Assembly (NCBI GenBank): GCA_038851755.1
Contig: JAWCKR010000020.1
Span: 1-23,036, forward strand
Reading direction: 5' to 3'
Origin: Candidatus Hadarchaeales archaeon
GTDB taxonomy: Archaea; Hadarchaeota; Hadarchaeia; Hadarchaeales; WYZ-LMO6
DNA: 23,036 nucleotides
The notes beneath the pieces are model-generated. The model saw only the letters and a list, made by a program, of their open reading frames with translations. It had not been told where the DNA came from and searched no databases. Shown here piece by piece: positions 1 to 15,194 of the stretch (position 1 is its first letter; the number at the start of each line of letters is the position of its first letter). The translations under genes were made by a program, and so were the position numbers.

Positions 1-882
1 AACGAGCCGGGGGGCTTCCCCGACGGCTACATCTGCGACTTCATGCAGGCGGAGAGGGACCTCCCCGCCCGCAGGTTCCTGGAGGTGGCCCAGGAGGACG
101 AGGAGGAGGCCCTGAAGTACTCCCGCGCCATGCAGGAGGGAATAGGGGGAATAGCGGCCGTGATAGACAACGTGCTGTGGCTGGGCTTCTACATGAGCGG
201 GGGAATAGGCTTCTCCAACACCGTGGCCTCGGCCGCTTACTCCGAGGTGATGAACGAGATCTCCATGGAGCTCATAGAGCTCTCCCACCGCTACATGCAG
301 GGGGTCAGGAAGGTACCCATCCGCTGGGACACCGTGAGGACGATGGTGAACTCAATCGTGCAGTACGCCATGGAGAGCTACGAGAAGTTCCCCACCCTCA
401 CGGAGTTCCACTGGGGAGGGGCCCACAGGGTCTCCGTGATAGGCTCCATAGCCGCTTCATCGGCTGCCATGCTCACGGGGAGCTCCACCATGGGATTGAT
501 GGCAGCCCACTACGCCGTGGCCTTCGCCATGAAAGAGGGCTGGCTCAGGACGGGATGGGCGGGGCAGGAGGTCCAGGACCACATAGGCCTTCCCTACCTG
601 TGCAGCTTCAGACCTGAGGAGGGAAACCTGACGGAGCTGAGGGGGCTGAACTACCCCATGCAGTCCTACACCGCTGCCCACGGGGCCATCAGGGGTGCCG
701 CTAACTACGCGGCCATGATAGGGAGGGGAAGTTCCTGGTGTCTCAGCCCCATCGTGAAGGTGGCCTTCGCCGATCCCCACCTGGTGTTCGACTTCAAGCA
801 ACCGAAGCTCTGCATCGCCAAGGCGGGGATAAGGCAGTTCATGCCGGCCGGGGAGAGGGACCCGGTGCTTCCGCCCCACTGA
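1..882 (+). CDS. mcrA: Methyl/alkyl-coenzyme M reductase alpha subunit, divergent Acr-type (5'-truncated by window edge)
   Basis: Frame 1 is open from base 1: NEPGGFPDG, WLGFYMSGGIGF, HWGGAHR, RTGWAGQEVQDHIG, LRGLNYP, VKVAFADPHLVFDF, FMPAGERD. These align in order with McrA motifs NEPGG, WLGSYMSGGVGF, HFGGSQR, RLGFFGYDLQDQCG, RGPNYP, KVAFAD, F-PAGER. Confidence 0.96.
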   Translation, partial: NEPGGFPDGYICDFMQAERDLPARRFLEVAQEDEEEALKYSRAMQEGIGGIAAVIDNVLWLGFYMSGGIGFSNTVASAAYSEVMNEISMELIELSHRYMQGVRKVPIRWDTVRTMVNSIVQYAMESYEKFPTLTEFHWGGAHRVSVIGSIAASSAAMLTGSSTMGLMAAHYAVAFAMKEGWLRTGWAGQEVQDHIGLPYLCSFRPEEGNLTELRGLNYPMQSYTAAHGAIRGAANYAAMIGRGSSWCLSPIVKVAFADPHLVFDFKQPKLCIAKAGIRQFMPAGERDPVLPPH

Positions 883-891
883 GGTGCGAGC

Positions 892-1479
892 ATGGGCAAG
901 AGCCTGCCACCCCTTAAGGAGATGTATCCCAAGTTCGCGGAGGAGTTCGAGAGGACCAAACCTCCGCCAGTCCTGGAGAAAGTCACCCCGGAAGCCCTTC
1001 CTCCCCCGAGCATGTGTCTCCCTCGCCCTGACGGTTGGTGGAGGCAGCCTCCTTACTCCAAGTGGATTCAGGACAGGGGGAGGGAACCAACGGCTTACGA
1101 GCTCTTCATGGATTTCATCATAGGAAGGGCGATTTCCAGTCCGAAAGCCATGGAGCTGGCGAGTTCTGCGCCCACCCGCCTAATCGTGTATGAGATCGAG
1201 CATCCCCAGAGGGGCACCGAGTTCGTGAGGATGTTCCTGAACCCTACTCAGGTGGTGGAGGGACCTCCTGAGGAGGAGCCCGACCTGTGGATCAAGATGG
1301 GGTACTACGACTTCGTTCCTGTTCTGGGGGGGGAGATAAGTGTCTTCAACGCGGTGTACGAGGGTAGGGCCAACATCATAGGCAACACCACGGCGGGACT
1401 CGACCAGTACGACGTGATGACGGCCATCTTGGGGTTCGAGATTCCTCGCCCGCGGTGCTGGCCCCGGGGACATCCCTGA
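892..1479 (+). CDS. SCP2 (sterol carrier protein-2)-like domain protein with Pro/Trp-rich N-terminal extension
   Basis: RBS GAGGTG (881-886) overlaps the mcrA stop. C-terminal PDLWIKMGYYDFVPVLGGEISVFNAVYEGRANIIGN matches the SCP2 pattern (A/P)D-x-x-I...F..L.G.......A...G...I.G. Confidence 0.7.
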   Translation: MGKSLPPLKEMYPKFAEEFERTKPPPVLEKVTPEALPPPSMCLPRPDGWWRQPPYSKWIQDRGREPTAYELFMDFIIGRAISSPKAMELASSAPTRLIVYEIEHPQRGTEFVRMFLNPTQVVEGPPEEEPDLWIKMGYYDFVPVLGGEISVFNAVYEGRANIIGNTTAGLDQYDVMTAILGFEIPRPRCWPRGHP

Positions 1480-1480
1480 T

Positions 1481-2929
1481 TCAGGTCCCCCCGGTCTTCA
1501 GCCTTTCCCTCATCTTCTTGTACTCTATGAGTTTGGAGTAGGCCATTCCTGCATCCTCGGGGGTGAAGTAGACGGGTATACGGTGCTTCCTGAGGAGTTT
1601 GACGGGCCTGGATTTGTCAAGGGGTTTGAGGGCCACGGCGAAGACCGTCTTCCCCCTCCGGTTAAGGGCTATCAACCTTTTGATGAGGGGCAGCTGGACC
1701 TCTCTAACATAAACCTTCCTCAGCTCCCTGTCGAGGAACCTGGTGGCGTAGGCATCCAGCCCCCCGAGGACAATCAGCCCACCAGCCTCCCACTTTTCTA
1801 TCACCTTGAGGATTTTGAACTCCAAGGAGGGATCCAGCTCGGCCACCGTGTCTATCGGATTCCCCTTGCTCCAGTAGGGGGGCATAAAGGAGTTCATCTC
1901 CTCTAGGAGGTGGGGAGGGGGCGGGGCGACCTCCACCAGGTCTTCCCGACAGGCGTCGGTGGCGGCCACCCCCCAGCCTCCTCCCCTCGTGAGGATGATC
2001 ACTTGGTTGTTCTTGGGGAGGGGCTGTTCGAGGGCCATGGCCACCTTCAGCAGCTCCTCCGTGCTCTCTACCTCCACCACTCCGGCTTGCCTGAAGACCC
2101 CGCTGTACACCTGCCTGGACCCGGAGAGGGAGCCCGTGTGGGATTTGGCAGCCCTGCTCCCAGCCTGGGTCTTTCCCACCTTGAGGGCCACGATAGGCTT
2201 CGTCGGGCTCGTCTTCCTCGCCACCTCAAAGAACTTCCTCCCGTTTTTTACCCCCTCTATGTAGGTGAGGATGACCCTGGTGGACTCTCTCTCCCTCAGG
2301 AGCTCTATCAGATCCTCGCACCTGAGGAAGGCCTCGTTTCCCGTGCTCACGAAGACGTCGAAACCAATGTGGTAGTAGGTTCCGCGATCCAGGAGCTGGG
2401 TCCCCAGGTTCCCGCTCTGGGAGAGGAAAGAGACATTTCCCTTCAGGGGCTTCACGGAGGCCATGAGGGCGGAGAGGCTGGAGGTGGCCGAGAATACTCC
2501 CATGCAGTTCGGTCCCACGAAGGGCAGGCCCTCCTCCTCTGCGGTTCTCACCAGTTCTTCCTCCATTTCCTCACCCTCTCTTCCCGTTTCTCTGAAGCCC
2601 GCAGAGATTATCACCGCTGACTTCACCCCCCTCTCCGCGCACTCCCTGAAGAGGGAGGGAACGGTTTTGGCCGGGGTGACGATGAGGGCTAGGTCGGTCT
2701 CCTCCGGAACCTTCGGGTAAGCCTTGAGCCCCATGAGGGTTTCCTCGTTTGGGTTCACGGGGTAGACCTCACCCTTGAAGCCCCCCTCCACCACGTGCTT
2801 CAGGATGATGCTTCCCCACTTGATGGGGGAGCGGGAGGCTCCAATCACTGCCACCGACTTCGGGTCTAAGAGATAGCGCAGGTTTTCGAGAGTTCTTTTG
2901 GAGAGCTCTCCCGACCTCCTTGAGGTCAT
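1481..2929 (-). CDS. acdA: Acyl-CoA synthetase (ADP/NDP-forming), alpha subunit
   Basis: PKSVAVIGAS, YPVNP, GPNCMG, SQSG, STGNEA, KVGKT..G.RAAKSHTGSL (phospho-His) and NPID motifs; no ATP-grasp beta domain; GGGTGA RBS upstream. Confidence 0.93.
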   Translation of the reverse strand: MTSRRSGELSKRTLENLRYLLDPKSVAVIGASRSPIKWGSIILKHVVEGGFKGEVYPVNPNEETLMGLKAYPKVPEETDLALIVTPAKTVPSLFRECAERGVKSAVIISAGFRETGREGEEMEEELVRTAEEEGLPFVGPNCMGVFSATSSLSALMASVKPLKGNVSFLSQSGNLGTQLLDRGTYYHIGFDVFVSTGNEAFLRCEDLIELLRERESTRVILTYIEGVKNGRKFFEVARKTSPTKPIVALKVGKTQAGSRAAKSHTGSLSGSRQVYSGVFRQAGVVEVESTEELLKVAMALEQPLPKNNQVIILTRGGGWGVAATDACREDLVEVAPPPPHLLEEMNSFMPPYWSKGNPIDTVAELDPSLEFKILKVIEKWEAGGLIVLGGLDAYATRFLDRELRKVYVREVQLPLIKRLIALNRRGKTVFAVALKPLDKSRPVKLLRKHRIPVYFTPEDAGMAYSKLIEYKKMRERLKTGGT

Positions 2930-2952
2930 CTTTTCACCCTTTCCCCGACCTC

Positions 2953-2993
2953 TTTATAAATCCTCCGAGCCACGTGAAACTCAATCTTTTTAA
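2953..2993. promoter_or_regulatory. Divergent TATA boxes for acdA (-) and the SCP2/unknown gene pair (+)
   Basis: TTTATAAA at 2953-2960 and TTTTTAA at 2987-2993, each about 21-23 nt from its start codon in an AT-rich gap. Confidence 0.6.
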
Positions 2994-3014
2994 GACCTTC
3001 TACCATATTTTTTT

Positions 3015-3485
3015 GTGCCCCTGGTACTGACGAGGGAATGGTTCGAGAGCATCAAGGAAGCTTGGAACTCCGACCCCTCGAACATAAAGAGCCTGGAAGG
3101 GGCGAGCGAAAGGATCCTCTGGACGGTGGAAGAGCTCCCGCTCTCCAAGCTTTCCCCGGAGATGGAGAAATCCATCTTGGAGGGCGGGATGATCGACGAG
3201 GCTCTCTTCAAGAAGGCCAAGGAGACGGACAGGGTGAATCTCCTGCTGGGGTGGGAGGGGGGAAAGCTGGTGGACTTCAGGCCCGCGAGGGAAGGAGAGG
3301 CCCATACGGCGATGATGAAAGGGAAGTATTCCGTCTTCGAAAAGATAAAGACGGGCGAGGACTTCCTGTGGGCCACGATGGACAGGGAGATAGAGTTCAG
3401 GGGGAGGATGTTCGAGTTCACGAGGAGATTGGACGGATACACCAAGTTCACGCTCATCATGGTATCAAAAACGGATCTGGTGTGA
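3015..3485 (+). CDS. SCP2-like domain protein
   Basis: EWFESIKEAWNSD N-terminus and AHTAMMKGKYSVFEKIKTGEDFLWATMDREIEFRGRM resemble archaeal SCP2 proteins; GTG start placed for a leaderless transcript. Confidence 0.62.
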   Translation: MPLVLTREWFESIKEAWNSDPSNIKSLEGASERILWTVEELPLSKLSPEMEKSILEGGMIDEALFKKAKETDRVNLLLGWEGGKLVDFRPAREGEAHTAMMKGKYSVFEKIKTGEDFLWATMDREIEFRGRMFEFTRRLDGYTKFTLIMVSKTDLV

Positions 3486-3495
3486 GGTGAGAAGG

Positions 3496-4968
3496 ATGGA
3501 AACGATGGAGGAAAGGAGCGCCAAGCAGAAGGCGGAGTGGGAGGAATGGATCAGGCACATGGGACTGGACAAGATTTGGCAGTATCTCAGCTCCATCAAC
3601 CCCTTCCCTGGTCAGACTCCCCTCAGCCTCGAGATTTTCTCCACCATGCCCGTTTGGAGGCACACCTTCAAGCATCTGGGCATGACCCCTGAGAGATGGC
3701 AGAGGCTTAAGTACGAGAACTTCGTGGAATGGTCCTACCGCATAGACCAGGCGGTGGAGACCTCGAACAGGCTGTTGAAGAACCCACCTTCTAGGGAGGA
3801 GCTCTACCACATGGACAACCTGTGCTACCTGAGCCACCCCCCGGCCTACCTCTGCAGGTCTGACGTGGGAAGGACCACCTGTCAGATGCTTTACGGTAAG
3901 TACGCCACCGTGGAGTACGTGCATGTGGATGACTTTACCCGTGAAGCTTACTGGATCCTGGGATACCACAACGAGGACGGCTTGCCCGTTCACCGGTGGC
4001 TCTTGGGTGCCTCCAAGGACATCTCCCAGTACTTCGACGAGGAGGACGAGAAGTGCTTCCTCACCACCACGGACAAATGGACAGGGGCCCCCAACAAGGA
4101 GGAGCTGGACGACAGGCTGAACCGCAGGCACCTCAGGACGGGGGTGAAGGTGAGGGACGTGCCCAGGTACTACTGGGACCCCTACGACTGGGGGATGGGG
4201 GTGAGGGACGTGATCATGGACATGCGCACCGAGCTCTTCTCCAAGTGGCTCCACGCCACCCTTTACATCTCCGGAGTCTCGGCTTACATCAGCACCATCG
4301 CCCAGAACGCCCTGATGAGCAGCGAGTTCTTCCTCTACGTCTACTACGGTCTGAACACGGCCGCGCTGGGGGTCAGGTACAACCTCTTCTCCTATGTGCC
4401 CCTGCCGCCCATCCTCAGGACCCTGCTGGGCCTCACCCAGGAGACCTTCGTGAAGAGGATGAGCGAGCTCTTCCTCGGCGGTTACAACACCATCCATAAG
4501 TACGCCTGCAGCGAGAAGAAGATCCCCAACCTCTTCAAGATCAGGAAGTTCCACTGGGAGCACGGCCAATTTTATCCCCATGTGAGAGGAATCCTTCCGC
4601 CCTTCGTCCTGGCGAGGGCCATTCCGCCCTCGCTGGAGCCCATCAACCTCAGGCAGTACCTGGAAACTCCCCCGAGCAAGGAGTTCCTCGAGGTGCTGGA
4701 GAGTGAGGGAGGCCTGAACAAGGAGACGGGTCAGTTGCCCTCCATAGAGGAAACGGGAAGGTTCCACTTCCTTTTCGATCCATCCGTGGAGCCCCTGCAG
4801 GCCAAGGACTTCCCGCCCTTCGACCCCAACAAGGGCCAGATCTGGCCCTTCGACATCACTAGGGAGAAGGTGGAGATCATGGTGGAGGAGGGCTACGACG
4901 GCTCTGGGAAGAACCTCGAGTATTACAGCAAGCTGGCGGACAAGAAGATGGGGAAGAAGGTGGACTGA
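3496..4968 (+). CDS. Hypothetical soluble protein, ~490 aa, Trp/Tyr/His-rich
   Basis: Long ORF with strong C/G third-position bias. RBS GAGGTGA (3484-3490) overlaps the upstream stop, favouring ATG 3496 over GTG 3487. No family recognised and no evident TM segment. Confidence 0.88.
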   Translation: METMEERSAKQKAEWEEWIRHMGLDKIWQYLSSINPFPGQTPLSLEIFSTMPVWRHTFKHLGMTPERWQRLKYENFVEWSYRIDQAVETSNRLLKNPPSREELYHMDNLCYLSHPPAYLCRSDVGRTTCQMLYGKYATVEYVHVDDFTREAYWILGYHNEDGLPVHRWLLGASKDISQYFDEEDEKCFLTTTDKWTGAPNKEELDDRLNRRHLRTGVKVRDVPRYYWDPYDWGMGVRDVIMDMRTELFSKWLHATLYISGVSAYISTIAQNALMSSEFFLYVYYGLNTAALGVRYNLFSYVPLPPILRTLLGLTQETFVKRMSELFLGGYNTIHKYACSEKKIPNLFKIRKFHWEHGQFYPHVRGILPPFVLARAIPPSLEPINLRQYLETPPSKEFLEVLESEGGLNKETGQLPSIEETGRFHFLFDPSVEPLQAKDFPPFDPNKGQIWPFDITREKVEIMVEEGYDGSGKNLEYYSKLADKKMGKKVD

Positions 4969-4983
4969 GTCCCTCAGGCTCGC

Positions 4984-5550
4984 CTAGTCTTTTAGGAGCT
5001 GGGAGACCTCCATCATGGCCGAGGAAACTCTCATGGCCAAGGGGATGCTCCCATCGGTCCTTATCAGCTGCTTGAAGAAGGCTTCGGTGGGGTCTCTCTC
5101 CCCCAGGAACACCTCTATCATGGCCTGGGTATAGCCTTTCACGGTGAGGTCGGGCTTCTCCAGCAGTCCTGATCCTCCGGACAGTCTTCCATCCTTTATC
5201 TGGAAGTGGCCCCTCATAGGGCTGTCTATGGCTTCCATGTTCACCGCGACGTTCCCCGCCCTCTGGAGGGCTTCCTTCACGTCAGGGTTCCTCTCCGCCA
5301 GTATGCTTATCCCCTCCCAGAGGATGTCCATGAACCTAGCGGAGGCTTCCGGATCTTCCTTTACGAACTGAGTGACGTTCACCTCCTTCAATCTCTTCGC
5401 CAGCCTGGGCACGAGGTCGGGAACCAGCTCCAGGAGTTTGGAAACCCCGAACTCCTTTATCCCGTCTAGGAGAGGAAGGAGATTCCCCTTCAGCTGGTCA
5501 AGGGGGAGTTGGAAGGCTTCTTCAATGGTTTTCCTCAGATCCTCTCCCAC
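4984..5550 (-). CDS. SCP2-like domain protein with N-terminal helical domain (~188 aa)
   Basis: C-terminal HFQIKDGRLSGGSGLLEKPDLTVKG...VFLGERDPTEAFFKQLIRTDGSIPLAM is SCP2-like. Start revised to GTG 5550, about 22 nt after TTATAAA (5579-5573); the ORF-track extension to 5991 overlaps aor. Confidence 0.78.
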   Translation of the reverse strand: MGEDLRKTIEEAFQLPLDQLKGNLLPLLDGIKEFGVSKLLELVPDLVPRLAKRLKEVNVTQFVKEDPEASARFMDILWEGISILAERNPDVKEALQRAGNVAVNMEAIDSPMRGHFQIKDGRLSGGSGLLEKPDLTVKGYTQAMIEVFLGERDPTEAFFKQLIRTDGSIPLAMRVSSAMMEVSQLLKD

Positions 5551-5572
5551 GCCTTCTCTTTTGGGATGGAGA

Positions 5573-5637
5573 TTTATAACCTTTTTGGGAGCCGCGCGAA
5601 AAAAAAGAGACAAGTTTTTAGCGCGGGGAGAGGGTGA
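5573..5637. promoter_or_regulatory. Divergent promoter region (SCP2 / aor) with inverted repeat
   Basis: TTATAAA (-, 5579-5573), TTTTTA (+, 5615-5620), RBS GGGTGA (5632-5637); dyad CGCGCGAAAAA (5593-5603) / TTTTTAGCGCG (5615-5625). Confidence 0.55.
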
Positions 5638-5643
5638 TGGATA

Positions 5644-7587
5644 GTGAACTGGTTCGGTTACGCGGGTTCGATTCTGAGAGTAGACCTGAGCAGGGGAGAG
5701 GTGGAGAAGGAGGAACTCACAGAGGACCTTGTGAAGAGGTTCTTGGGGGGACTGGGGATAAACCTGAAGCTTTACAGGAGGGAGGCCTCCCCCCTTTCCG
5801 ATCCCCTTTCTCCCTCCAACCCCCTGGTGCTCGGAGTGGGCCCGCTGGTGGGAACGGAAGTGCCTGGAGCCACCAAGATGGTGGCCACCACGAAGTCTCC
5901 CCTCTTTTCTAGGGGTGGAAAGCACTTCGTGGACGGTGCCGTGTGCGGTGGCAGGCTGGGGGCGCAGCTGAAGAGGGCGGGGTACGACCATGTGGTGATC
6001 GTGGGAAGATCGGAGAGGCCGGTCTATTTGAGCCTGGAGAGGGGCCGTGCGGAGCTCCTGGAAGCCTCACACCTCTGGGGAAAGGACACCTACGAGACCA
6101 CGGACCTGTTGCTCAGGGAGCATCCTGGAGCAGGGGTTGCGGTGATCGGAAGGGCGGGTGAGAAGGGAGTGGTGCATGCCATGGCCATAGTGGACAAGGT
6201 GGCCACCTTGGGCAGATTCGGGGTTGGTGCGGTGATGGGTTCCAAGAACCTGAAGGCGATAGTGGCGAAGGGTGAAGGGAAGGTAGCCGTGGCTAGAGGG
6301 GAGGAGCTCTCCGAGCTGGTGGGGAAGTGGAGGGAGGACATAGAGAGGAACCCCCTCCTGCCCCAGTGGAGGGTGCTGGGCATCATGGCGGGCTGGCCCG
6401 CCCATTCCCCTCTGGTCAGGGAGGGTGTGTGGGAATACTCAAAGTGGAACGAGCTCTACGGCCCGGAGAGATGGGTGGAGTTCCGGGGGGGGAAGAACTC
6501 CTCCTGCTGGGGTTGCCCCATGGGCTGCAGGGTGGACTTTCACATAAAAGAAGGGAGGCACGCGGGGCTCTCCACCTTCACGGGGTCCTACATGCTTCCG
6601 GCGAGGGTGGGGCAAAGGCTGGAGCTGGAGGACCCCAGGGATGCCGTGGCCCTCCTTGACCTGTGCAACAGGGAGGGGATGTGCTACTTCACCACCAGCC
6701 AGCTGGTGAACTGGGTCACCAGGCTCTCCAAAGAGGGAAAGCTGAAGGAGAGGCTGGGGAGGGACTTTGAGACTTATCTCAGGCTCTTCGGGGAGATCGC
6801 GGGAAGGGAGGGCTTCGGAGGGATTCTCTCGGACGGGTGGTACCCGGCTTCGGAGAAGCTTGGCGCGGATCCGGATGAGTTCGAGGAGGGCACGGGCCTT
6901 TTCAGGGGGGCCGACGCCATCCAGGATGCCAGGTTCACGAGGCTCCATCCCCAGGCCTTCTCCCACCTCACCTCGCCCAGGCCTCACCACGGTGGGACCC
7001 AGTCCCTTTACACCGTTCCGATGGTGGAGCCACAGGTGCTGAGGGAGGTGGACGCCAGGGACATGGGTCTTTCGGAGGAGGAGCTGAACAGGGTGTTCGG
7101 GGGGCCCATGAAGTTCAACCCGGCGAGGTACGCCAGGTACGCGGAGGACAGGATGGCGGTCTACAACAGCCTGGGCACCTGCATCGTGCACGCCCTGTGG
7201 GGCTTCCTGGGAGTGAGGTACCTCAACCTGAAGCTGGCGGCGGAGCTGTATTCCCTGGCCACCGGGAGGGAGCTGGGGGTGGCGGAACTCCGAAGGACGG
7301 GAGAAAGGATCTTCACCTTCTGGAAGATGGTGAACGCGGAGGAGGGACTGGGGAAGGAGGACTACAGATGCTCCAAGATCTGGCTGAAGCCCAGGAGGAC
7401 ACCCGAGGGGGAGGTGGTTCTGAGGGACTACTATGGGGAGGTGGTTCTGTCCGGGGAGGACATGGAAAACCTCCTGAGGGATTACTACCACGAGAGAGGC
7501 TGGGATGAGTCCACGGGCCTTCCCACCCCTGAGAAGCTGAGGGAACTCGGGCTGGGGGAGGAAGGCTTCAGGCTTCCCTCCCCCTGA
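5644..7587 (+). CDS. aor: Tungsten-type aldehyde:ferredoxin oxidoreductase family protein (divergent)
   Basis: GYAGSILRVDLS, FLGGLG, KSP, LKRAGYD, GRFGVGAVMGSKNLKAI, CWGCPMGC plus NSLGTC ([4Fe-4S] ligands), YYHERGWDESTGLPT..KLRELGL. Confidence 0.93.
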   Translation: MNWFGYAGSILRVDLSRGEVEKEELTEDLVKRFLGGLGINLKLYRREASPLSDPLSPSNPLVLGVGPLVGTEVPGATKMVATTKSPLFSRGGKHFVDGAVCGGRLGAQLKRAGYDHVVIVGRSERPVYLSLERGRAELLEASHLWGKDTYETTDLLLREHPGAGVAVIGRAGEKGVVHAMAIVDKVATLGRFGVGAVMGSKNLKAIVAKGEGKVAVARGEELSELVGKWREDIERNPLLPQWRVLGIMAGWPAHSPLVREGVWEYSKWNELYGPERWVEFRGGKNSSCWGCPMGCRVDFHIKEGRHAGLSTFTGSYMLPARVGQRLELEDPRDAVALLDLCNREGMCYFTTSQLVNWVTRLSKEGKLKERLGRDFETYLRLFGEIAGREGFGGILSDGWYPASEKLGADPDEFEEGTGLFRGADAIQDARFTRLHPQAFSHLTSPRPHHGGTQSLYTVPMVEPQVLREVDARDMGLSEEELNRVFGGPMKFNPARYARYAEDRMAVYNSLGTCIVHALWGFLGVRYLNLKLAAELYSLATGRELGVAELRRTGERIFTFWKMVNAEEGLGKEDYRCSKIWLKPRRTPEGEVVLRDYYGEVVLSGEDMENLLRDYYHERGWDESTGLPTPEKLRELGLGEEGFRLPSP

Positions 7588-7598
7588 GGGTCCGCCAT

Positions 7599-8045
7599 TC
7601 AGGAAGGCTCTATGAGCTTGAAGACATCCATGGGCACGGTGGAGCGCATGATGGCGTTGGCGATGAGGGAGATGATCTCGAAGTCCATCTTCTCTGCCCC
7701 CTCCACCACTTGTATCTTTCCCTCCACCACCGCGTTGGAGAGTTCCTCCTGTCCGGAAATCACCCTCTTCCAGGTTTCCCACTCCCCCTCCAGCACCACA
7801 TCCGCTTTCAGGGGAGTGTTGGCCACTTCGGTTTCGGTCTTACCCTCCGCGATGTGGATGCGCATGTAGGCATCCTCCATTCCCTTCTCCTTGAAGGAGG
7901 GGGGAAGCCTTATCACGTTTAAGAGCGAAAAGTCCTTCCCCTTGGTCTTCTCTTGGAACTGTGGGTCCGCTTCTATGTTGCTGAGCAAGACGTTGAGAAA
8001 GCTCTTCATTCCCGCTAGAAAGAGTTCGGCCTCCAATCCAGGCAT
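7599..8045 (-). CDS. SCP2-like domain protein
   Basis: IHIAEGK...ADVVLEGEWETWKRVISGQEELSNAVVEGKIQV is a typical SCP2 C-terminal pattern; TTAAATAT (8073-8066) about 20 nt upstream. Confidence 0.8.
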   Translation of the reverse strand: MPGLEAELFLAGMKSFLNVLLSNIEADPQFQEKTKGKDFSLLNVIRLPPSFKEKGMEDAYMRIHIAEGKTETEVANTPLKADVVLEGEWETWKRVISGQEELSNAVVEGKIQVVEGAEKMDFEIISLIANAIMRSTVPMDVFKLIEPS

Positions 8046-8110
8046 CCTTTATTACGGAAGAGACAATATTTAACCCTACCGTTGAGGGTGTAGAACTGGA
8101 TGAGGTGAGT

Positions 8111-8683
8111 TCAGCCCTTTTTCTTGGAGGGCTGGGTCTCTTCTACAATCTTCCTTGCCGCGTTCTTTGCGGCTTCCAGCAGGGGCTGGTTGCAGAGGGA
8201 CACCGGACAGGAGGAGATGGGAATCCTCACGATTTTTTGCAGGATGGTTGCTACCACGGGGCCGCACACTATGGCCTTGGCCCCCTCCTGCTCGGCGTTG
8301 AGGGCAGCGACGATGGCGTCCTCGATGCTGGAGGCCCCGTATCCCTTGATCTTGATTTTTAGGTTGCCGGCGCTCACGTGGGAGGTGGTGAGGGCGTCGA
8401 GGGAAGAGCGTGAGGCGATGAGGGCGATGAAGGGTTCACCCCCCTGGGAACTTTCCAGGCTCTTCAGGGTCCTCAGGATGTCCCTGAGGGTGGAGAGCCT
8501 GGGATTGGGCCTGTGCCCGGAGATGATCTTGTAGAGGGAGCTTTCGGAGACGCCGGAGAGCTTGCTGAACTCCTTCATGTCCAGATGGAACTCCTTCAGC
8601 ACCCTCTTCAGGGTCTCCCTGAACTTCTCGTCGGACTCCAGGGCGGAGTTCAGGACCTCCTCCCACTTCTGGAAACCCACCAT
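8111..8683 (-). CDS. XRE/Cro-family HTH transcriptional regulator with C-terminal alpha/beta ligand-binding-like domain
   Basis: MKEFSKLSGVSESSLYKIISGHRPNPRLSTLRDI is an HTH_3 pattern; C-terminal EDAIVAALNAEQEGAKAIVCGPVV resembles an archaeal regulator family. Confidence 0.88.
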   Translation of the reverse strand: MVGFQKWEEVLNSALESDEKFRETLKRVLKEFHLDMKEFSKLSGVSESSLYKIISGHRPNPRLSTLRDILRTLKSLESSQGGEPFIALIASRSSLDALTTSHVSAGNLKIKIKGYGASSIEDAIVAALNAEQEGAKAIVCGPVVATILQKIVRIPISSCPVSLCNQPLLEAAKNAARKIVEETQPSKKKG

Positions 8684-8691
8684 CGGCTAAC

Positions 8692-8726
8692 TTTCCTCTT
8701 TGTCCATAAAAAGCACACTATTTTAG
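8692..8726 (+). promoter_or_regulatory. Putative operator plus TATA upstream of the symporter, overlapping the regulator's own promoter
   Basis: TTTCCTCTTTGTCCATAAAAAGCACAC (8692-8718) matches the reverse complement of 12678-12704 at 22/27 positions; it is followed by TATTTTAG. Confidence 0.6.
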
Positions 8727-8759: not shown

Positions 8760-10109
8760 TTGGAGATAGGCTGGTCGCCGGTCTTTGACTTCGTCCTCCT
8801 CAGCCTTCTCCTCCTTGTCGCCACCATCCTTCGCCTGAGGCTGAGGGTTCTCCAGAGGCTGCTCATGCCAAACGCTCTGGTGGCAGGTTTCCTGGGGTTT
8901 CTCTTGGCCCAGGTCTTCCGGGTGGTTTCCTTCCACCACCTGGAGGACATGATCTATCACCTCCTCAACCTGACCTTCGCCGCGCTGGCGCTGGGGATGG
9001 TCACGAGGGGGAGGAGCTACGGGCAGGCGGCCAGCACGGGCATCCTCATGTCCTTCGTCTTCTCCCTCCAGTTGCTGGTGGGCTTTCTCCTGACCTTTTT
9101 CCTGATGGCCACCTTCTGCCCGGATCTCTTCCCCACCTTCGGCTCCCTCATGGCCGTGGGTTACGCCTCCGGCCCTGGTCAGGCCTTCTCCTTCGGCTCT
9201 TCCTGGGAAGGAAGGGGGTTCGCCCACGGGGGAGAGGTGGGTTTGATCTTCGGGGCGGTGGGCTTCCTCTGGGCCTACGGGGTGGGGACGGTCTGGCTCA
9301 ACTGGGGGGTCAGGAGGGGAAGGGCAGTCCTTCTGAGGGACCTCCGGGCGGTGCCGGAGGAGGTCTGGACGGGCATCCTCCCCAGGCGCAGGAGGAAAGC
9401 TTTCGGGGAGACCGTTTCCTCCTCGGAGGCGGTGGACACCCTCAGCCTCCAGGTGGCCCTCTGCGGTTTGGTCTACGCCTTTGCTTACTTGGTGGTGAGG
9501 CTCCTTTCCCTGAGCTCCGAAACCGCCTGGGGGGCCACCTTCGTGGTCACGGTGATGGTGGGGATGGCGGTCAGGAAGGTCATGGAGAGGACGAGGGTCG
9601 ACCACCTGATCTCCCCGGGGGTTCAGAGGCATGTAGCGGGGGTATGCGTGGATTACGCCGTGGCGGCCTCCGTCGCCGCCATCTCCCTGCCCGCCCTCAG
9701 GATGTACGCCCTCCCCCTCATCCTGATTGCCCTGGCAGGCGGGTTGGTCACGGTGCTGGCCTTCCTCTGGCTGCCCCACAGGGTGTGGAGGGACTACAGG
9801 TTCGAGAGGACGCTCGTCACCTACGGCACCCTCACGGGGACGATGGACTCCGGCATAGCCCTCTGCAGGGTGGTTGACCCGGAGCTCCGCACCCCAGCGG
9901 TGGAGGACTACGTGAGGGGCATGCCTCTGATGTTCCTTCTCATCCTCCCCCTCTATGGTCTTCTCTTCCTTCCCCTCAGCGGTTATGGTTCGGAGAGGGC
10001 CTTCCCCTTCTACTCCCTTACCCTCGTGGGTCTCCTCCTCTCCCTCCCCCTCTTCCTCCTGATGTGGAGGAGGATGGGCCTCTGGGTGCCAAGGCGCTCT
10101 CAGAGGTAG
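8760..10109 (+). CDS. Sodium/glutamate symporter (GltS/ESS) family transporter
   Basis: About 12 hydrophobic segments; LQRLLMPNALVAGFLG, GYASGPGQA..FG, YGTLTGTMDSGIAL.RVVDP re-entrant-loop motifs; TTG start after GGAGGGAG. Confidence 0.85.
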   Translation: MEIGWSPVFDFVLLSLLLLVATILRLRLRVLQRLLMPNALVAGFLGFLLAQVFRVVSFHHLEDMIYHLLNLTFAALALGMVTRGRSYGQAASTGILMSFVFSLQLLVGFLLTFFLMATFCPDLFPTFGSLMAVGYASGPGQAFSFGSSWEGRGFAHGGEVGLIFGAVGFLWAYGVGTVWLNWGVRRGRAVLLRDLRAVPEEVWTGILPRRRRKAFGETVSSSEAVDTLSLQVALCGLVYAFAYLVVRLLSLSSETAWGATFVVTVMVGMAVRKVMERTRVDHLISPGVQRHVAGVCVDYAVAASVAAISLPALRMYALPLILIALAGGLVTVLAFLWLPHRVWRDYRFERTLVTYGTLTGTMDSGIALCRVVDPELRTPAVEDYVRGMPLMFLLILPLYGLLFLPLSGYGSERAFPFYSLTLVGLLLSLPLFLLMWRRMGLWVPRRSQR

Positions 10110-10858
10110 GGCACTTCCTCCCTGAGGAGGTCCACCACTTCTTTCCTGAGCCTTACCAGCTCCCTACTCAGCTTGTCTCGCGGGCGGGGGAGTTCCACCC
10201 GGAGCACCTCCTTCACCCTGGCGGGGCGGGAAGTGAGCACAATCACCCTGTCGGAGAGGTACACCGCCTCCTCAACGTTGTGGGTCACGAAGAGGATGGT
10301 CTTTTTCACCTCCCACCAGATCTTGGTGAGGTCCTGGTGGAGAATCCAGCGGGTCTGCGCGTCCAGGTTGGCGAAGGGTTCATCCATCAAGAGCAGCTCC
10401 GGGTCCACGGCGAGGGCTCTGGCTATGGCCACCCTCTGCTTCATCCCTCCCGAGAGCTGATGGGGGTAGCAGTGTTCGAAACCCGCCAGACCCACCATTT
10501 CCACCAGTTCCTTCACCCTTTCCCCACCCTCCATGCCCCTCACCTCTCTCCCGAACTCCACGTTCTCCCTGACCGTCCTCCAGGGAAAGAGAGAGTCTTC
10601 CTGGAAAACGAAGCCCAGGCGGTGTCTGGAAGGGTCGGGGGGTCTCCCGTCTATGGTGACCTTACCCGAGGAAGGTCTCTCCAGACCCCCGACCAGCTTG
10701 AGGAGGGTGGTCTTCCCGCACCCCGAGGGACCCACCACGGAGACGAACTCTCCCTCCCTCACCCCAAAGGAGACTCCTCTGAGGACCTCCAGTCTTCCTT
10801 CCCCCGTGGTGAAGCTCTTGTGCAGGTCCTCCACCTTCACCTTGGTCTTCACGGGCAC
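10100..10858 (-). CDS. ABC transporter ATP-binding protein, NitT/TauT/Ssu family
   Basis: GPSGCGKT, VFQE..LFPWRTV, YPHQLSGGMKQR, LLLMDEPF, FVTH, V.LPRPRD. Confidence 0.95.
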   Translation of the reverse strand: MPVKTKVKVEDLHKSFTTGEGRLEVLRGVSFGVREGEFVSVVGPSGCGKTTLLKLVGGLERPSSGKVTIDGRPPDPSRHRLGFVFQEDSLFPWRTVRENVEFGREVRGMEGGERVKELVEMVGLAGFEHCYPHQLSGGMKQRVAIARALAVDPELLLMDEPFANLDAQTRWILHQDLTKIWWEVKKTILFVTHNVEEAVYLSDRVIVLTSRPARVKEVLRVELPRPRDKLSRELVRLRKEVVDLLREEVPYL

Positions 10859-10867
10859 GGTTCCACC

Positions 10868-11656
10868 TCACAGGGAGACCTCTTTCCTCCACACGAAGAG
10901 ACGCCTTTCCGTCTGGAGGAGGATTTCGTTCATGAGGAGTCCTACGATGCCTATGGCGATCATCCCTGCCACGATCATGTCCACCCTCAGGAGCTCGGAG
11001 TACTTCAGGATGAGCCTGCCCAGACCCACATTCTCGCCACCTATCATTTCCGCCGCCACGATGCACATCCAGCCGACTCCCAGCCCCACCCTCATTCCGG
11101 AGGTGATTTCGGGCAGGGCGCTGGGTATCACCACTTTCTTCACCGTGGTCCTGTTTTTGGCCCCGAAGCTCTTGGAGACCTCCACCAGCGTGGGGTTGGT
11201 TCTCTTGATGCCGCTCATGGTGTTGATGAGGATGGGGAAGAAAGCACCCAGCCATATCACGAAGAGGTAGCGCCAGTATCCGGAGAGGAGGAGGATGACC
11301 AGAGGTATCCAGGCGAGGGGAGGGATGAAGCGAAGGGGCTCCAGCACGGGCTTGGAGGAACGGTATACTCCCTCCCTCAGCCCCATCAGGATGCCCAAGG
11401 GTATGGCGGTGAGGCAGGCCAGGGCGAACCCCCCCAGTACCCTGAGGAGGCTGTGGAGGGCGTGTTCGTGTAGCCTGATTCCTTCCACGTCCCCCCTGGT
11501 CAGGAGGGTGGAAAAGGAGCGGAGCACCTCCACAGGACCTGGGAAGAAGGAGGAGCGGGTGATTCTGGAAGAGAGCTCCCAGAGGAGGAGGACGGCTGCC
11601 AGCAGGAGGGAGGCATACAGCACCTCCCTGGAGCGCAGGGTCTTCCAGACTTTCAT
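10868..11656 (-). CDS. ABC transporter permease, NitT/TauT/Ssu family
   Basis: SLLRVLGGF, IPPLAWIP, FFPILINT..G, KSFGA...VVIPSALP.I..GMR, W..IVAAEM. Confidence 0.94.
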   Translation of the reverse strand: MKVWKTLRSREVLYASLLLAAVLLLWELSSRITRSSFFPGPVEVLRSFSTLLTRGDVEGIRLHEHALHSLLRVLGGFALACLTAIPLGILMGLREGVYRSSKPVLEPLRFIPPLAWIPLVILLLSGYWRYLFVIWLGAFFPILINTMSGIKRTNPTLVEVSKSFGAKNRTTVKKVVIPSALPEITSGMRVGLGVGWMCIVAAEMIGGENVGLGRLILKYSELLRVDMIVAGMIAIGIVGLLMNEILLQTERRLFVWRKEVSL

Positions 11657-11663
11657 TCAAACC

Positions 11664-12647
11664 CTACTTCAGGGCTTCCTCTAAAAGGGTGAGGTCGAGA
11701 GCGCCCTCCACGAAGGCATCCACGTTTTCCACTCCCGTGATGGTCCCGGTCTCTATGAGAAGCCTGGCGAAGGCTTTGATGCTCTCCACGTCGGGGTTGA
11801 CGTTCCAGACCATCCTCTTCCAGGACTCCTGAACCACGGCCGCGGGTTTGCCCGTGCGGGAGGAGAAAATCCCCATGGCCCGGTTTTCGTTCTCCTGCAC
11901 CAGCTGCATGGCCTTCACATGGGCCTTGACGATGGAGAGGGCGAGCTTCCTGTCCTCCCTGAGGAGCTTCCCTGAGACGTAGAGGACGCAGCACTGGTGG
12001 TTGGGGAGGATGTCGTGGGAGGTGTAGACCACCTTTCCCGTGCCGTTCACCACCGCCTCGGCGCAGAAGGGCTCCCAGGCTATGTACCCGTCTATCTCCC
12101 CCTTCTCCAGGGCGAGGGGGAGGGTGGAGGGACCGGAGTAGTGCTTGCGGTTGAAGGTGATCCCCAGCTGGTTCTCCACCATGGAGAGCATGGCGTTCTG
12201 GATGGTGCCAAGGCCGGGGGTCCCCACCGTCTTACCGTTCAGGCCCTCCACGTTTTCGATCTCTGGACGGGCCACCAGCGCCGAACCCTCCAGGTTGGCC
12301 GAAGCCACGATCTTGAAGTCGGCCCCCTGCGAGAGGGCCCTGAGGGCAGGAACCGCTCCCACGTATCCGGCATCCAAGCCGCCGGAAACGAACTCGGTCA
12401 TCTGCGCCGGACCGTTGACGTATTCGAGGTACCTGAACCTGAACCCCGGTCCAGCCTCCTCCTCAAAGAGTTCCAGCTCCCTTCCCACGAAACACCCTAT
12501 CTGGTGGATATCACCCACCAGGTAGCCCATCCTGACGGTGGTGACGGCCTCTCTGCCGGCCTGGTACCCCAGACGGTAGCTGGCGTAGGAGGCCAGGGAG
12601 AGAACGACCAGGAAGGAGAGGAGGATACCCAGCATCTTGCCCGTCAT
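11664..12647 (-). CDS. ABC transporter substrate-binding protein, sulfonate/nitrate/taurine-like
   Basis: N-terminal membrane anchor; VRMGYL, GLDAGYVG..P, L.GKTVGTPG.GTIQ, GEIDGYIAWEP, HQCCVL. Confidence 0.9.
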   Translation of the reverse strand: MTGKMLGILLSFLVVLSLASYASYRLGYQAGREAVTTVRMGYLVGDIHQIGCFVGRELELFEEEAGPGFRFRYLEYVNGPAQMTEFVSGGLDAGYVGAVPALRALSQGADFKIVASANLEGSALVARPEIENVEGLNGKTVGTPGLGTIQNAMLSMVENQLGITFNRKHYSGPSTLPLALEKGEIDGYIAWEPFCAEAVVNGTGKVVYTSHDILPNHQCCVLYVSGKLLREDRKLALSIVKAHVKAMQLVQENENRAMGIFSSRTGKPAAVVQESWKRMVWNVNPDVESIKAFARLLIETGTITGVENVDAFVEGALDLTLLEEALK

Positions 12648-12815: not shown

Positions 12816-13451
12816 ATGCACATACCGGATGGCTTTTTGACCCTCGAGGTGTGGGCCCCCCTCTGGGCCCTGGCCGCGGGCGCCCTGGCCTTTTCCACCT
12901 GGCGCGTGAACAGGAGGCTGGAGGACAGGCACGTGCCCCTGCTGGGGGTGCTCGCGGCCTTCGTCTTCGCCGTTCAGATGCTCAACGTGCCCGTGGCGGG
13001 GGGCACCAGCGGGCATGTGGTGGGAGGGGTGCTCATCGCCCTCTTCGTGGGCCCCCTGGCGGGCTCCCTGGTGATGGGCTCCATCCTGGCCGTGCAGGCC
13101 CTCTTCTTCCAGGACGGGGGCATAACAGCTCTGGGGGCCAACGTGGTGAACATGGGGCTGATAGGAACCATCCTGGGATACTGGCTCTACCGGCTGGTAT
13201 CGGGGGCCGTTGGAGGAAGAGAAGGGAGGCTGGCGGGGGCAGGAGTGGCGGGGTGGGTGACGATCGTGCTGGCGTCCGTCGCCTGCTCCCTGGAGCTGGC
13301 GGCCTCGGGCACCTCCCCGCTCGGGGTGGTCCTCCCCGCCATGGTGGGGTATCACGTGGTGATAGGGGTGGTGGAGGCCGTGGCCACGATGGCGGTGGTC
13401 GGCTTCGTCTCCCGGGTGAGGCCCGACCTCCTCGAACTGCCCAAGCTGTAG
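12816..13451 (+). CDS. cbiM: ECF-type Ni/Co transporter substrate component NikM/CbiM
   Basis: N-terminal MHIPDG, GTSGH..GG, QALFFQDGGITALGAN, H..IG..EA. Confidence 0.95.
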   Translation: MHIPDGFLTLEVWAPLWALAAGALAFSTWRVNRRLEDRHVPLLGVLAAFVFAVQMLNVPVAGGTSGHVVGGVLIALFVGPLAGSLVMGSILAVQALFFQDGGITALGANVVNMGLIGTILGYWLYRLVSGAVGGREGRLAGAGVAGWVTIVLASVACSLELAASGTSPLGVVLPAMVGYHVVIGVVEAVATMAVVGFVSRVRPDLLELPKL

Positions 13452-13459
13452 GTGAGGGG

Positions 13460-13738
13460 ATGAGGCTCAGGTGGTGGATGGTGGGGCTGGTGGTCTGCCT
13501 CTTCATGGCGGGAGTCCTCTCCCTCTTCGCCTCCTCCTCTCCCGATGGCCTGGAGAGGGTGGCGGAGGATCACGGCTTCGCGGAAAAGGCGAAGGAGTTT
13601 CTTTCCTCTCCCTTCCCGGATTACTCCGTTCCGGCTTTGGGAGGGGCCCTCTCCACTTCCCTGGCGGGACTCCTGGGTGTCGTCCTGATCCTCCTCCTCA
13701 CCTTTTTCTGGGCCAAGGCCCTCAGGAAGAAGAAATGA
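13460..13738 (+). CDS. PDGLE-domain Ni/Co transport component (NikN-like)
   Basis: MRLRWWMVGL...ASSSPDGLERVAE...PFPDY, two TM helices; GGTGA RBS before ATG 13460 (3' part of the 12851..13738 ORF). Confidence 0.9.
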   Translation: MRLRWWMVGLVVCLFMAGVLSLFASSSPDGLERVAEDHGFAEKAKEFLSSPFPDYSVPALGGALSTSLAGLLGVVLILLLTFFWAKALRKKK

Positions 13739-14490
13739 AGCACCACTTCCTGGACCAGTACAGCGATCGCGCGAGTCCCCTCCACTCCCTAGACCCCAGG
13801 GTCAAGATCCTGACCTTTCTCTCCTTCGTGGTGGTGGTAGTCCTCACCCCCCTGACCCCCCCCTCCCGCTTCCTCTTTTACGCCCTCCTCCTCTTCTCCC
13901 TCGTCCTCCTCTCCAGAGTCCCCCCCGGCTTCCTCCTGAAGAGATCCGCGGTGGTCCTCCCCTTCGTGGGCCTGGTGGCGGTGGGCCTGCCCTTCCTGGG
14001 CGGCAGCGGTGGCTCCTACAACCTGGGACCTTTCCACGTGACCCACTCCGCCCTCCTCATCTTCGCCAACGTTCTCCTCAAGTCCTGGTTCTCCGTGATG
14101 GTGATGGGTCTTCTCGTGTCCACCACCCCCTTCACCCGCCTCCTGCGGGGCTTCCAGTCCCTCGGTCTTCCAGCCCTCTTCACCACCATCCTCTCCTTCA
14201 TGTACCGGTACCTCTACCTCCTCACGGACGAGTTTGAGAGGATGACCAGGGCCAGGGACTCGAGGGCCTGGAGGATGGGCAGGCTGGAGAGGATGAGGGT
14301 CACCGGGAACATGGTGGGCGCGGCCTTCCTGAGGAGCTACGAGAGGGGTGAGCGGGTGTACCTGGCCATGCGGGCGAGGGGCTTCGACGGGGGGATCAGG
14401 GTGATGCGCGAGCCGAGGATGGGGGGGCCGGACTTCCTCTTCCTCTCCCTCTTCTTCCCCCTCCTCCTCCTTCCTGCGGTGATGGTATGA
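13735..14490 (+). CDS. cbiQ: ECF transporter T component NikQ/CbiQ
   Basis: SPLHSLDPRVK, TT.F..L, FMYRY...L.DE..RM..A..SR, FLRSYERGERVY.AM.ARG; ATGA overlap with the upstream gene. Confidence 0.94.
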   Translation: MKHHFLDQYSDRASPLHSLDPRVKILTFLSFVVVVVLTPLTPPSRFLFYALLLFSLVLLSRVPPGFLLKRSAVVLPFVGLVAVGLPFLGGSGGSYNLGPFHVTHSALLIFANVLLKSWFSVMVMGLLVSTTPFTRLLRGFQSLGLPALFTTILSFMYRYLYLLTDEFERMTRARDSRAWRMGRLERMRVTGNMVGAAFLRSYERGERVYLAMRARGFDGGIRVMREPRMGGPDFLFLSLFFPLLLLPAVMV

Positions 14491-15194
14491 AGGCGGTGGA
14501 GATAAGGAACCTGCGTTACACCTACCCCGACGGAACCAGGGCCCTGAGGGGTGTGAACCTGGAGGTGGAGGAAGGAGAAAGCGTCTTCCTGATGGGTCCC
14601 AACGGATCGGGCAAGTCCACCCTGCTCCTCCACCTCAACGGGCTCCTTCTCCCCCAGAGCGGGGAGGTGAAGATTTTCGGGCTGGACCCCAGGAACGGAG
14701 TGGGGGAGATAAGGAGGAGGGTGGGATTGGTCTTCCAGGACCCAGATGACCAGCTCTTCATGCCGACCGTCTTTGAGGACGTGGCCTTCGGCCCTCTGCA
14801 CCTGGGACTGGGAGAGAGGGAGGTCAGGAGGAGGGTGAAGAAGGCGCTGGAGGAGGTGGGGATGAGGGGGTTCGAAAGGAGGAGCCCCCAGCACCTCAGC
14901 TACGGGGAGAGAAAGAGGGTGGCCATAGCCACCGTTCTCTCCATGGACCCGGAACTTCTCGCCCTCGACGAGCCCACGCTGGGCCTGGACCCCTGGATGA
15001 GGAGAAAGCTGCTCTCCCTCCTCCGCAGGCTGAGGAGGGGGAGGACCCTTCTGATGGCGGGGCACGACGGGGAGCTGATGGAGCTGTGCGACCGTGCGTA
15101 CCTGCTTAGGGGGGGCAGGGTGGAGAAGGAAATGGATCCCTGCAGGTGGAGGGAGGAAATAGAAATAGGCGGGGGGAAAAGGGAGTATCGGTAG
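14487..15194 (+). CDS. cbiO: ECF transporter ATPase NikO/CbiO
   Basis: GPNGSGKST, VFQDPDDQLF, LSYGERKR, LDEPT; ATGA overlap with cbiQ. Confidence 0.94.
   Translation: MKAVEIRNLRYTYPDGTRALRGVNLEVEEGESVFLMGPNGSGKSTLLLHLNGLLLPQSGEVKIFGLDPRNGVGEIRRRVGLVFQDPDDQLFMPTVFEDVAFGPLHLGLGEREVRRRVKKALEEVGMRGFERRSPQHLSYGERKRVAIATVLSMDPELLALDEPTLGLDPWMRRKLLSLLRRLRRGRTLLMAGHDGELMELCDRAYLLRGGRVEKEMDPCRWREEIEIGGGKREYR

Follow-up and report, generated by a model that had tools for sequence, protein, structure and literature searches.

Four divergent SCP2-like genes at an alkyl-coenzyme M reductase locus of a Hadarchaeales archaeon as candidate carriers of hydrocarbon chains

The window analysed here is a stretch of 23,036 nucleotides that makes up the whole of one contig (JAWCKR010000020.1, called C20 below) of a Candidatus Hadarchaeales archaeon, whose genome (G000) measures 1.25 Mb, has 62% GC and is 93%-complete; public relatives of the window genes are found in metagenome-assembled genomes of Hadarchaeota/Hadesarchaea. 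Our subject is the cluster at its start, in which four genes for small SCP2-like proteins, S1 to S4, lie among genes of alkane metabolism. The contig end cuts the first gene, acrA2, so that 293 C-terminal residues remain of an McrA-like protein of Acr (alkyl-coenzyme M reductase) type (1..882, + strand; PF02249, E=4.9e-23). Next come S1 (892..1479, +; 195 amino acids, from an Acr-linked subfamily) and ACDalpha (1481..2929, −), which resembles the alpha subunit of NDP-forming acyl-/acetyl-CoA synthetases (Succ_CoA_lig and CoA_binding_2 domains; TIGR02717 E=2.7e-129, yet below the cut-off), is conserved in synteny and is one of six such genes in the genome. S2 (3015..3485, +; 156 amino acids) precedes U493 (3487..4968, +), a soluble 493-residue protein of an uncharacterised family. 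S3 (4984..5550, −; 188 amino acids, a helical N-terminal part followed by the SCP2 domain) is divergently oriented from Aor (5644..7587, +), a tungsten-type aldehyde:ferredoxin oxidoreductase in which AFOR_N (2.3e-65) and AFOR_C (4.1e-52) are both present, and S4 (7599..8045, −; 148 amino acids) converges with it. The cluster ends with an HTH_3 regulator carrying a sub-threshold, PrpR_N-like part by Pfam (8111..8683, −); it is a candidate regulator of the locus, and its position is conserved in two related genomes (G063 and G061).

All four SCP2-like open reading frames (ORFs) appear at these coordinates in the ORF list of the window. Codon-usage scores are positive for S1, S2 and S4, while S3 starts with GTG and a longer frame (4984-5991) runs into Aor. 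The four proteins are predicted to be soluble, with no transmembrane segment, and are kept in every genome of the host family (6/6), synteny included. The initial annotation had described them as mutually divergent ORFs with an SCP2 pattern packed into 7.2 kb, and both the ORFs and their divergence hold: no pair reaches a BLASTP E-value below 0.07, and they are therefore not recent duplicates.

The evidence for SCP2 membership differs in strength from one protein to the next. Against the gathering cut-off of the Pfam SCP2 family (PF02036; 21.3 bits), S3 passes by itself (E=2.4e-8, 34.7 bits) and, as a positive control, aligns with the local Pfam-positive SCP2 proteins by hhalign at 2.8e-5. S4 stays below threshold (E=0.02, 15.7 bits); SCP2 is listed for all six of its orthologues, two of which pass the cut-off, its family profile finds the Thermus SCP2 entries 2cx7 and 1wfr as best matches in PDB (0.009, E about 0.01), and hhalign against the local Pfam-positive proteins gives E=9e-5. 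For S1, SCP2 is listed for 9 of 15 family members scanned, with only the one from Bathyarchaeota BA2 above the cut-off, and homologues from Methanolliviera, at 24.5 bits, and from Methanoliparum, at 28.6 bits, exceed it too, which makes three cross-phylum homologues that pass. A family profile of 19 S1 sequences matches ten PDB chains at E<=1, the best being 4uei (6.9e-6) and 1c44 (1.5e-5). Five of the ten carry the name of a sterol-carrier or non-specific lipid-transfer protein; the remaining five, of 120-128 residues, are named peroxisomal multifunctional enzyme type 2, enoyl-CoA hydratase 2 or estradiol 17-beta-dehydrogenase 4, and we take them to be the SCP2-like domain of peroxisomal multifunctional enzyme type 2. 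One S1 family member is named 'SCP2 sterol-binding domain-containing protein' by NCBI; a shallow S1 alignment gave no hhalign match to the local SCP2 proteins. No S2 family member passes Pfam SCP2 (0/12), and PDB profile searches with S2 gave nothing meaningful. Among the four, S2 is the only one for which a fold model was seen, and this stored ESM Atlas model (predicted local distance difference test 0.88, predicted template-modelling score 0.86) has an SCP2 cluster as its best structural neighbour, the two aligning across 148 residues with template-modelling scores of 0.77/0.73; of its 30 feature matches, 26 are to SCP2. S2 also aligns with the local SCP2 proteins by hhalign (91%, E=1e-6, 127 columns), and its hidden Markov model (HMM) matches two Pfam-positive SCP2 proteins of the host genome at 2e-7 and 6e-8.

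Three of the four ORFs fall below the Pfam cut-off on their own, and high-GC DNA gives many spurious ORFs, so that small frames in a 62% GC genome might simply mimic the SCP2 C-terminal motif. We regard such a chance resemblance or annotation artefact as highly improbable and in fact already contradicted: the proteins S1-S4 keep 59-97% identity between genera, each is backed by independent evidence from profiles, PDB or a model, and homologues from other phyla pass Pfam. Judged by their sequences, and for S2 also by its model, S1-S4 are mutually divergent and anciently diverged members of the SCP2 superfamily.

The remainder of the locus lies on another contig of the host genome, C12, whose end carries acrA1, S1', acrB, acrG, U523 and then the first 89 residues of another acrA. 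S1' is 55% identical to S1 and overlaps acrB by 22 nucleotides, and the acrA2 fragment of the window is 84% identical to the full-length acrA1. The assembly break falls inside the duplicated acrA; the stretch not covered, from C12:41260 to C20:1, amounts to about 225 residues of acrA2. On contig C133 of genome G062, acrA1-S1'-acrB-acrG-U523-acrA2-S1-ACDalpha are all found on a single contig, and G063 and G061 carry acrA-S1-ACDalpha-S2-U493-S3-Aor-S4-HTH in an order identical to that of the window. These gene orders indicate that the window continues C12, the reconstructed order being acrA1-S1'-acrB-acrG-U523-acrA2-S1-ACDalpha-S2-U493-S3-Aor-S4-HTH. We read bases 1-8700 as the distal half of an alkane-activation locus of about 14.5 kb.

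The reductase at this locus belongs to a particular type. On the canonical McrA model TIGR03256, acrA1 scores 514.6 bits, below the equivalog cut-off of 767.75, and it clusters with the divergent copies of BA2 and Methanoliparia, apart from the canonical McrA of Methanoliparia; on these two grounds we file it as a putative Acr. McrA-like genes occur in 6 and S1 in 7 of the 66 genomes of the host phylum, and U-family genes occur in the same seven; since the bearers of S1 and McrA are close relatives, they amount to about two independent lineages. Outside the host family, the order acrB-acrG-acrA-S1 is found in a genome of a different family of the phylum (G011), and acrB-acrG-acrA-S1-like in Methanolliviera, while BA2 carries an S2-like gene, U490, a divergent S1-like gene, acrA and an S3-like gene. 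In a sample of 401 genomes from the phylum of Methanoliparia, a profile search detected S1 in 11, while 235 have McrA-like genes; the eight S1 carriers outside Methanoliparia have 2-9 McrA-like genes each.

We built a quick IQ-TREE phylogeny of 36 McrA-like proteins and compared the loci some 6-7 kb either side of their genes. A branch with a support of 100 in the Shimodaira-Hasegawa-like approximate likelihood-ratio test splits off 18 'long' AcrA proteins (593-643 amino acids), a clade that spans Hadarchaeota, BA2, Methanoliparia and the eight further genomes. Within 3 kb of its members, S1 is found in 14/18 cases, a U-family gene in 14/18 and either of the two in 17/18, against 0/18 with an S1, U or other SCP2-like neighbour among the other McrA-like proteins (554-579 amino acids), among them the canonical Mcr that the same Methanoliparia also encode. 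Five genomes with several McrA-like genes and no S1 also lack a long-clade AcrA. The association is kept while gene order varies by lineage (acrBG-U-acrA-S1; U-acrA-S1; acrBGA-S1; or acrBG-S1 split from U-acrA), and in three genomes acrB-acrG-S1 and U-acrA form separate loci. Linkage of SCP2-like genes to acr is present in related and in distant genomes, S1 keeping to one reductase clade, and the compared neighbourhoods indicate that it does not arise from local chance.

The long AcrA clade shares an N-terminal extension of about 35 residues, seen in acrA1 (L001:6729-8576), and an insertion of about 13-15 residues (window ~67-111), both absent from the other 18 McrA-like proteins. S1 in turn has, outside its SCP2 core, an invariant Pro/Trp-rich WW/EP region ahead of that core, and most members also have an RPxxWPxGHP tail at the C-terminus; by sequence the two look like docking elements. 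Features of this kind would also fit a different role, in which S1, perhaps together with the U family, helps to assemble or mature the enzymes of this Acr clade or forms part of their structure, and the SCP2 fold serves as a protein-protein or cofactor scaffold. The position of S1 inside or after the acrABG operon, the overlap with acrB in the C12 copy, the two strongly conserved docking-like motifs, the extension and insertion of the linked AcrA clade, and the lack of mcrC and mcrD in these acr operons all speak for it. S1 is moreover like McrC and McrD in being a small gene in or after a reductase operon and restricted to enzyme-bearing genomes. Unlike them, however, it belongs to another fold family and has no match to their Pfam models (MCR_C and MCR_D; PF04609 and PF02505) at E<=10, and homologues of McrC, McrD and Mmp3 are encoded elsewhere in BA2, Methanoliparum and the host genome. 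To our knowledge every role of the SCP2 fold involves a hydrophobic ligand, and three more SCP2-like genes stand beside downstream enzymes. We hold an assembly or scaffold role to be rather improbable.

The second association is that of S2 with the U family. The S2 stop lies one base ahead of the U493 start, S2-U pairs are spaced by 1-16 nucleotides on C20, on host contig C5 and in BA2, and S2-like genes stand immediately ahead of a U gene on C5 as well as in G061, BA2 and further Hadarchaeota; one Hadarchaeote departs from this, with a Pfam-positive SCP2 gene immediately after U. U493 has no sequence or profile match in Pfam, NCBIfam or PDB, no transmembrane segment and no conserved Cys, and its ESM Atlas matches were uninformative (sub-0.9 feature matches to unrelated clusters only). 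The host genome holds six U paralogues by BLASTP and seven matches by the family profile, which finds 5-8 per genome across the host family; besides the window gene the paralogues lie at C5:4540-6012, C12:39387-40958, C25:978-2543, C16:30849-32395 and C14:2020-3408. Among 5.8 billion protein clusters U493 has 36 relatives, with BA2, Methanoliparum and Hadarchaeales as the only organism names, and a scan of 185,579 species genomes found 25 U loci, all in Acr-bearing lineages. A U HMM run against the library retrieved 75 representatives, including distant relatives of about 390 amino acids, one of them from a Helarchaeote; in the eight further genomes, the U genes next to long-clade acrA are of this shorter kind. 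U genes often adjoin acrA, acrG, acyl-CoA synthetases or SCP2-like genes, and U493 is our best candidate for the alkyl-coenzyme M-converting step.

Several observations on the surroundings of U genes may be recorded here. An ATP-grasp_5 gene (ACD beta-like) lies near the U paralogue of contig C14 (L005, C14:188-3408), while the ACDalpha-like gene is found in the window. Proteins of 388-395 amino acids beside U in Methanoliparia were considered as U relatives and rejected as not related; they form a family with no Pfam match that sits between U/SCP2 and Aor (L058:3412-4575, L056:2384-3568, L062:1434-2618). A GlcD-like FAD_binding_4 protein and a CCG protein (HdrD/GlcF-like) recur beside SCP2-like and U genes, in the orders FAD-SCP2-CCG-SCP2 in Methanoliparum thermophilum (L071) and FAD-CCG-S2-U490 in BA2 (L046); in the host genome a CCG gene, a 228-residue ORF weakly similar to U (E=2.7e-4) and an FAD gene follow one another (L116, C2:33606-37139). 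The FAD_binding_4 and CCG proteins may also belong to this pathway.

The third association concerns Aor, which S3 and S4 flank in the window. Two of the three Aor genes of the host genome (those of the window and contig C4; the third lies on C2) have SCP2-like neighbours. S3 family members are found in BA2 and Methanoliparia, and in the latter (Methanolliviera and Methanoliparum) U, an S3-like SCP2 gene, Aor and an AMP-forming synthetase adjoin. The third Aor is part of a second island (L116/L117, C2:30000-67000) with two A2-like ATP-binding cassette (ABC) ATPases, a B12-radical-SAM protein, a Mmp3 homologue, DUF2102, BcrAD, DUF2099, DUF2117, two ACDalpha-like genes, a thiolase and an electron-transfer flavoprotein (ETF). 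Taken together, the conserved neighbourhoods indicate that each SCP2-like protein has its own fixed partner: the Acr genes for S1, the U493 family for S2 and Aor for S3 and S4. Of the neighbours first named in the initial annotation, Acr, the uncharacterised protein and Aor thus stand, but the Acd-like gene is not a fixed neighbour of S2.

The host genome as a whole encodes 11 SCP2-like ORFs according to the family HMMs: the four of the window, S1' on C12, an S2-type copy (S2') on C5, a trio on C4 and a pair on C8. A crude Poisson estimate puts the probability of finding four of them in 7.2 kb at about 6e-7, and the clustering lies far above the genome-wide density. The C4 trio adjoins the Aor copy, an AMP-forming acyl-CoA synthetase and a major facilitator superfamily (MFS) transporter, and the C8 pair adjoins transcription and tRNA genes (TFB/Sir2); beside the two canonical SCP2 genes of C8 stands a TFIIB gene with an intein that carries a LAGLIDADG domain (L007:2997-5450). 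Across the 66 genomes of the phylum, each of the six members of the Acr-bearing family has 5-8 Pfam SCP2 matches and G011 has one, with any match in only 3 of the 59 others; the two methanogens among the 14 control genomes gave no SCP2 match at E<=1.

A second alternative is that the SCP2-like proteins are general fatty-acid or acyl-CoA carriers of beta-oxidation that accompany an alkane lifestyle, with no specific role at Acr or with alkyl-coenzyme M. Classical SCP2 domains bind acyl-CoAs and fatty acids. The C4 trio lies beside an AMP-forming acyl-CoA synthetase and a transporter, the C8 pair shows no Acr link, and the window cluster itself contains a CoA-ligase-like gene. Beta-oxidation is also encoded in Acr-bearing Hadarchaeota, as stated in the portion of the published work that we draw on. 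On the other hand, S1 is tied to acrA/acrBG in three phyla despite rearrangement and is absent beside 18/18 of the other McrA-like genes, the partner family of S2 is confined to Acr-bearing lineages, and positions 1-8700 of the window contain no gene for an acyl-CoA dehydrogenase, hydratase, HADH or thiolase. We consider a purely general carrier role unlikely.

Comparison with known systems helps to delimit what S1-S4 might do. They resemble the SCP2/non-specific lipid-transfer domain (PF02036; 1c44, 1qnd, 2c0l, 4uei, 2cx7/1wfr) in the profile of the C-terminal half, in a core of about 120 residues and in solubility, and the stored model of S2 shares the fold of these structures. Unlike classical SCP2, they form four subfamilies with extra parts (the N- and C-terminal motifs of S1 and an 85-residue N-terminal part in S3) and are stand-alone proteins, not fused to thiolase or MFE-2, with Acr, U493 and Aor as partners. 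UbiJ and UbiT embody the same concept, a small SCP2 protein that enables soluble enzymes to act on a very hydrophobic substrate; S3 matches the NCBIfam UbiT model weakly (E=4.8e-4, 20.5 bits against a cut-off of 46.9), and the window, unlike the UbiJ/UbiT systems, has no ubi genes, with another pathway and other partners. A third relative is the SCP2-like C-terminal domain of alkyl sulfatases (PF14864, Alkyl_sulf_C), which gives weak matches below the cut-off to S3 (E=0.046), to the BA2 relative of S3 (4.7e-4) and to S4 orthologues. This domain probably recruits long-chain alkyl sulfate, which as an anionic surfactant resembles long-chain alkyl-coenzyme M in its chemistry. Unlike the sulfatase domain, S3 and S4 are free-standing and not fused to a hydrolase.

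The best explanation of these data, which we judge somewhat more probable than its opposite, is that S1-S4 act as carriers of hydrocarbon chains within an alkane-activation locus, a role suggested by the known lipid-binding role of the SCP2 fold together with the gene neighbourhood. Each SCP2-like protein would hold a long hydrocarbon chain in the hydrophobic cavity of the fold and pass it to or from a soluble partner. S1 would feed alkane into Acr, take up its detergent-like product alkyl-coenzyme M, or both; S2 would present alkyl-coenzyme M to U493, which would act in the alkyl-coenzyme M-converting step; S3 and S4 would act with Aor at the aldehyde/fatty-acid step; and NDP- or AMP-forming synthetases would then make acyl-CoA. 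A bolder version, which we put forward tentatively and find doubtful, is that the long Acr clade is a larger system than AcrABG, in which S1 is a subunit for substrate delivery or product removal, docked on the reductase by way of its conserved motifs at the N- and C-terminus, U with S2 removes the alkyl chain from coenzyme M, and Aor with S3, S4 and CoA ligases completes a carrier-linked relay to acyl-CoA.

Several points weigh against the carrier interpretation. Seven of the 11 SCP2-like genes, the C8 pair and C4 trio among them, lie outside the window, so that the family as a whole is not Acr-specific. S1 itself has no Pfam match, and a wider S1 profile aligns weakly with the local SCP2 profiles (E=0.056 and 2.7e-4). 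The related genomes are non-independent observations, and the sole exception in the long clade, M. thermophilum, has its S1-like gene on another contig and not beside acrA, in an island with two more SCP2 genes, a GlcD-like flavoprotein, a CCG protein and mcrC/mcrD. The eight further S1-bearing genomes hold several McrA-like genes, and possible use of short- or mid-chain alkanes in them would weaken the argument from substrate insolubility. Of four sequencing runs, X1 and X2 are labelled as RNA and show even depth over every bin, but are flagged as probably DNA; X3, an RNA-seq run, yields only six short low-depth contigs on acrA, ACDalpha, U493, S3 and S4; X4 gave no true match.

In the excerpts of published work at our disposal, the route from alkyl-coenzyme M to acyl-CoA is described as unknown, with Aor named as a candidate, and the recognition of long alkanes by Acr is described as unclear. 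Our full-text literature searches found no description linking SCP2-like proteins to alkyl-coenzyme M reductase, although supplementary gene tables may list the genes. The main texts of PMC11297162, PMC10811742, PMC10322722, PMC11057702 and PMC11376074 contain neither 'SCP' nor 'sterol', and PMC9081873 and PMC9118554 have zero occurrences of 'SCP2'. A paper on an Asgard lipid-transfer protein was considered as a possible prior description and, going by its title and the beginning of its abstract, judged unrelated. The initial annotation had likewise known of no such module, and the association between SCP2-like proteins and Acr is in our assessment real, conserved, experimentally tractable and probably new.

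Two further gene groups follow the cluster in the window. At 10100-12647 (−) lies an ABC transporter of the aliphatic-sulfonate/taurine type, with an SsuA-family binding protein, a permease and an ATPase, which could import coenzyme M, since this is an aliphatic sulfonate; in G011 a gene for an ATPase weakly similar to that of this transporter comes after S1. At 12816-15194 (+), CbiM, a PDGLE/CbiN-like protein and CbiQ, together with an ABC ATPase, make up an energy-coupling-factor (ECF)-type cobalt/nickel uptake system, which plausibly supplies nickel for cofactor F430 of Acr.

An important aspect of this locus is that it provides small, soluble and expressible candidates for two steps, the delivery of alkane to Acr and the conversion of alkyl-coenzyme M to acyl-CoA: the Acr-clade-specific S1, the U family with its S2 partner, and Aor flanked by S3 and S4. 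If the S1 and U proteins are needed, heterologous expression or reconstitution of Acr for hydrocarbon conversion may fail without them, and the two families could be used as extra metagenome markers for the long Acr clade. S1 accompanies the same enzyme type in distant archaea and may therefore be an undescribed helper for water-insoluble substrates. As for the host archaeon, the enzymes encoded next to these genes suggest that it probably consumes oil alkanes without oxygen.

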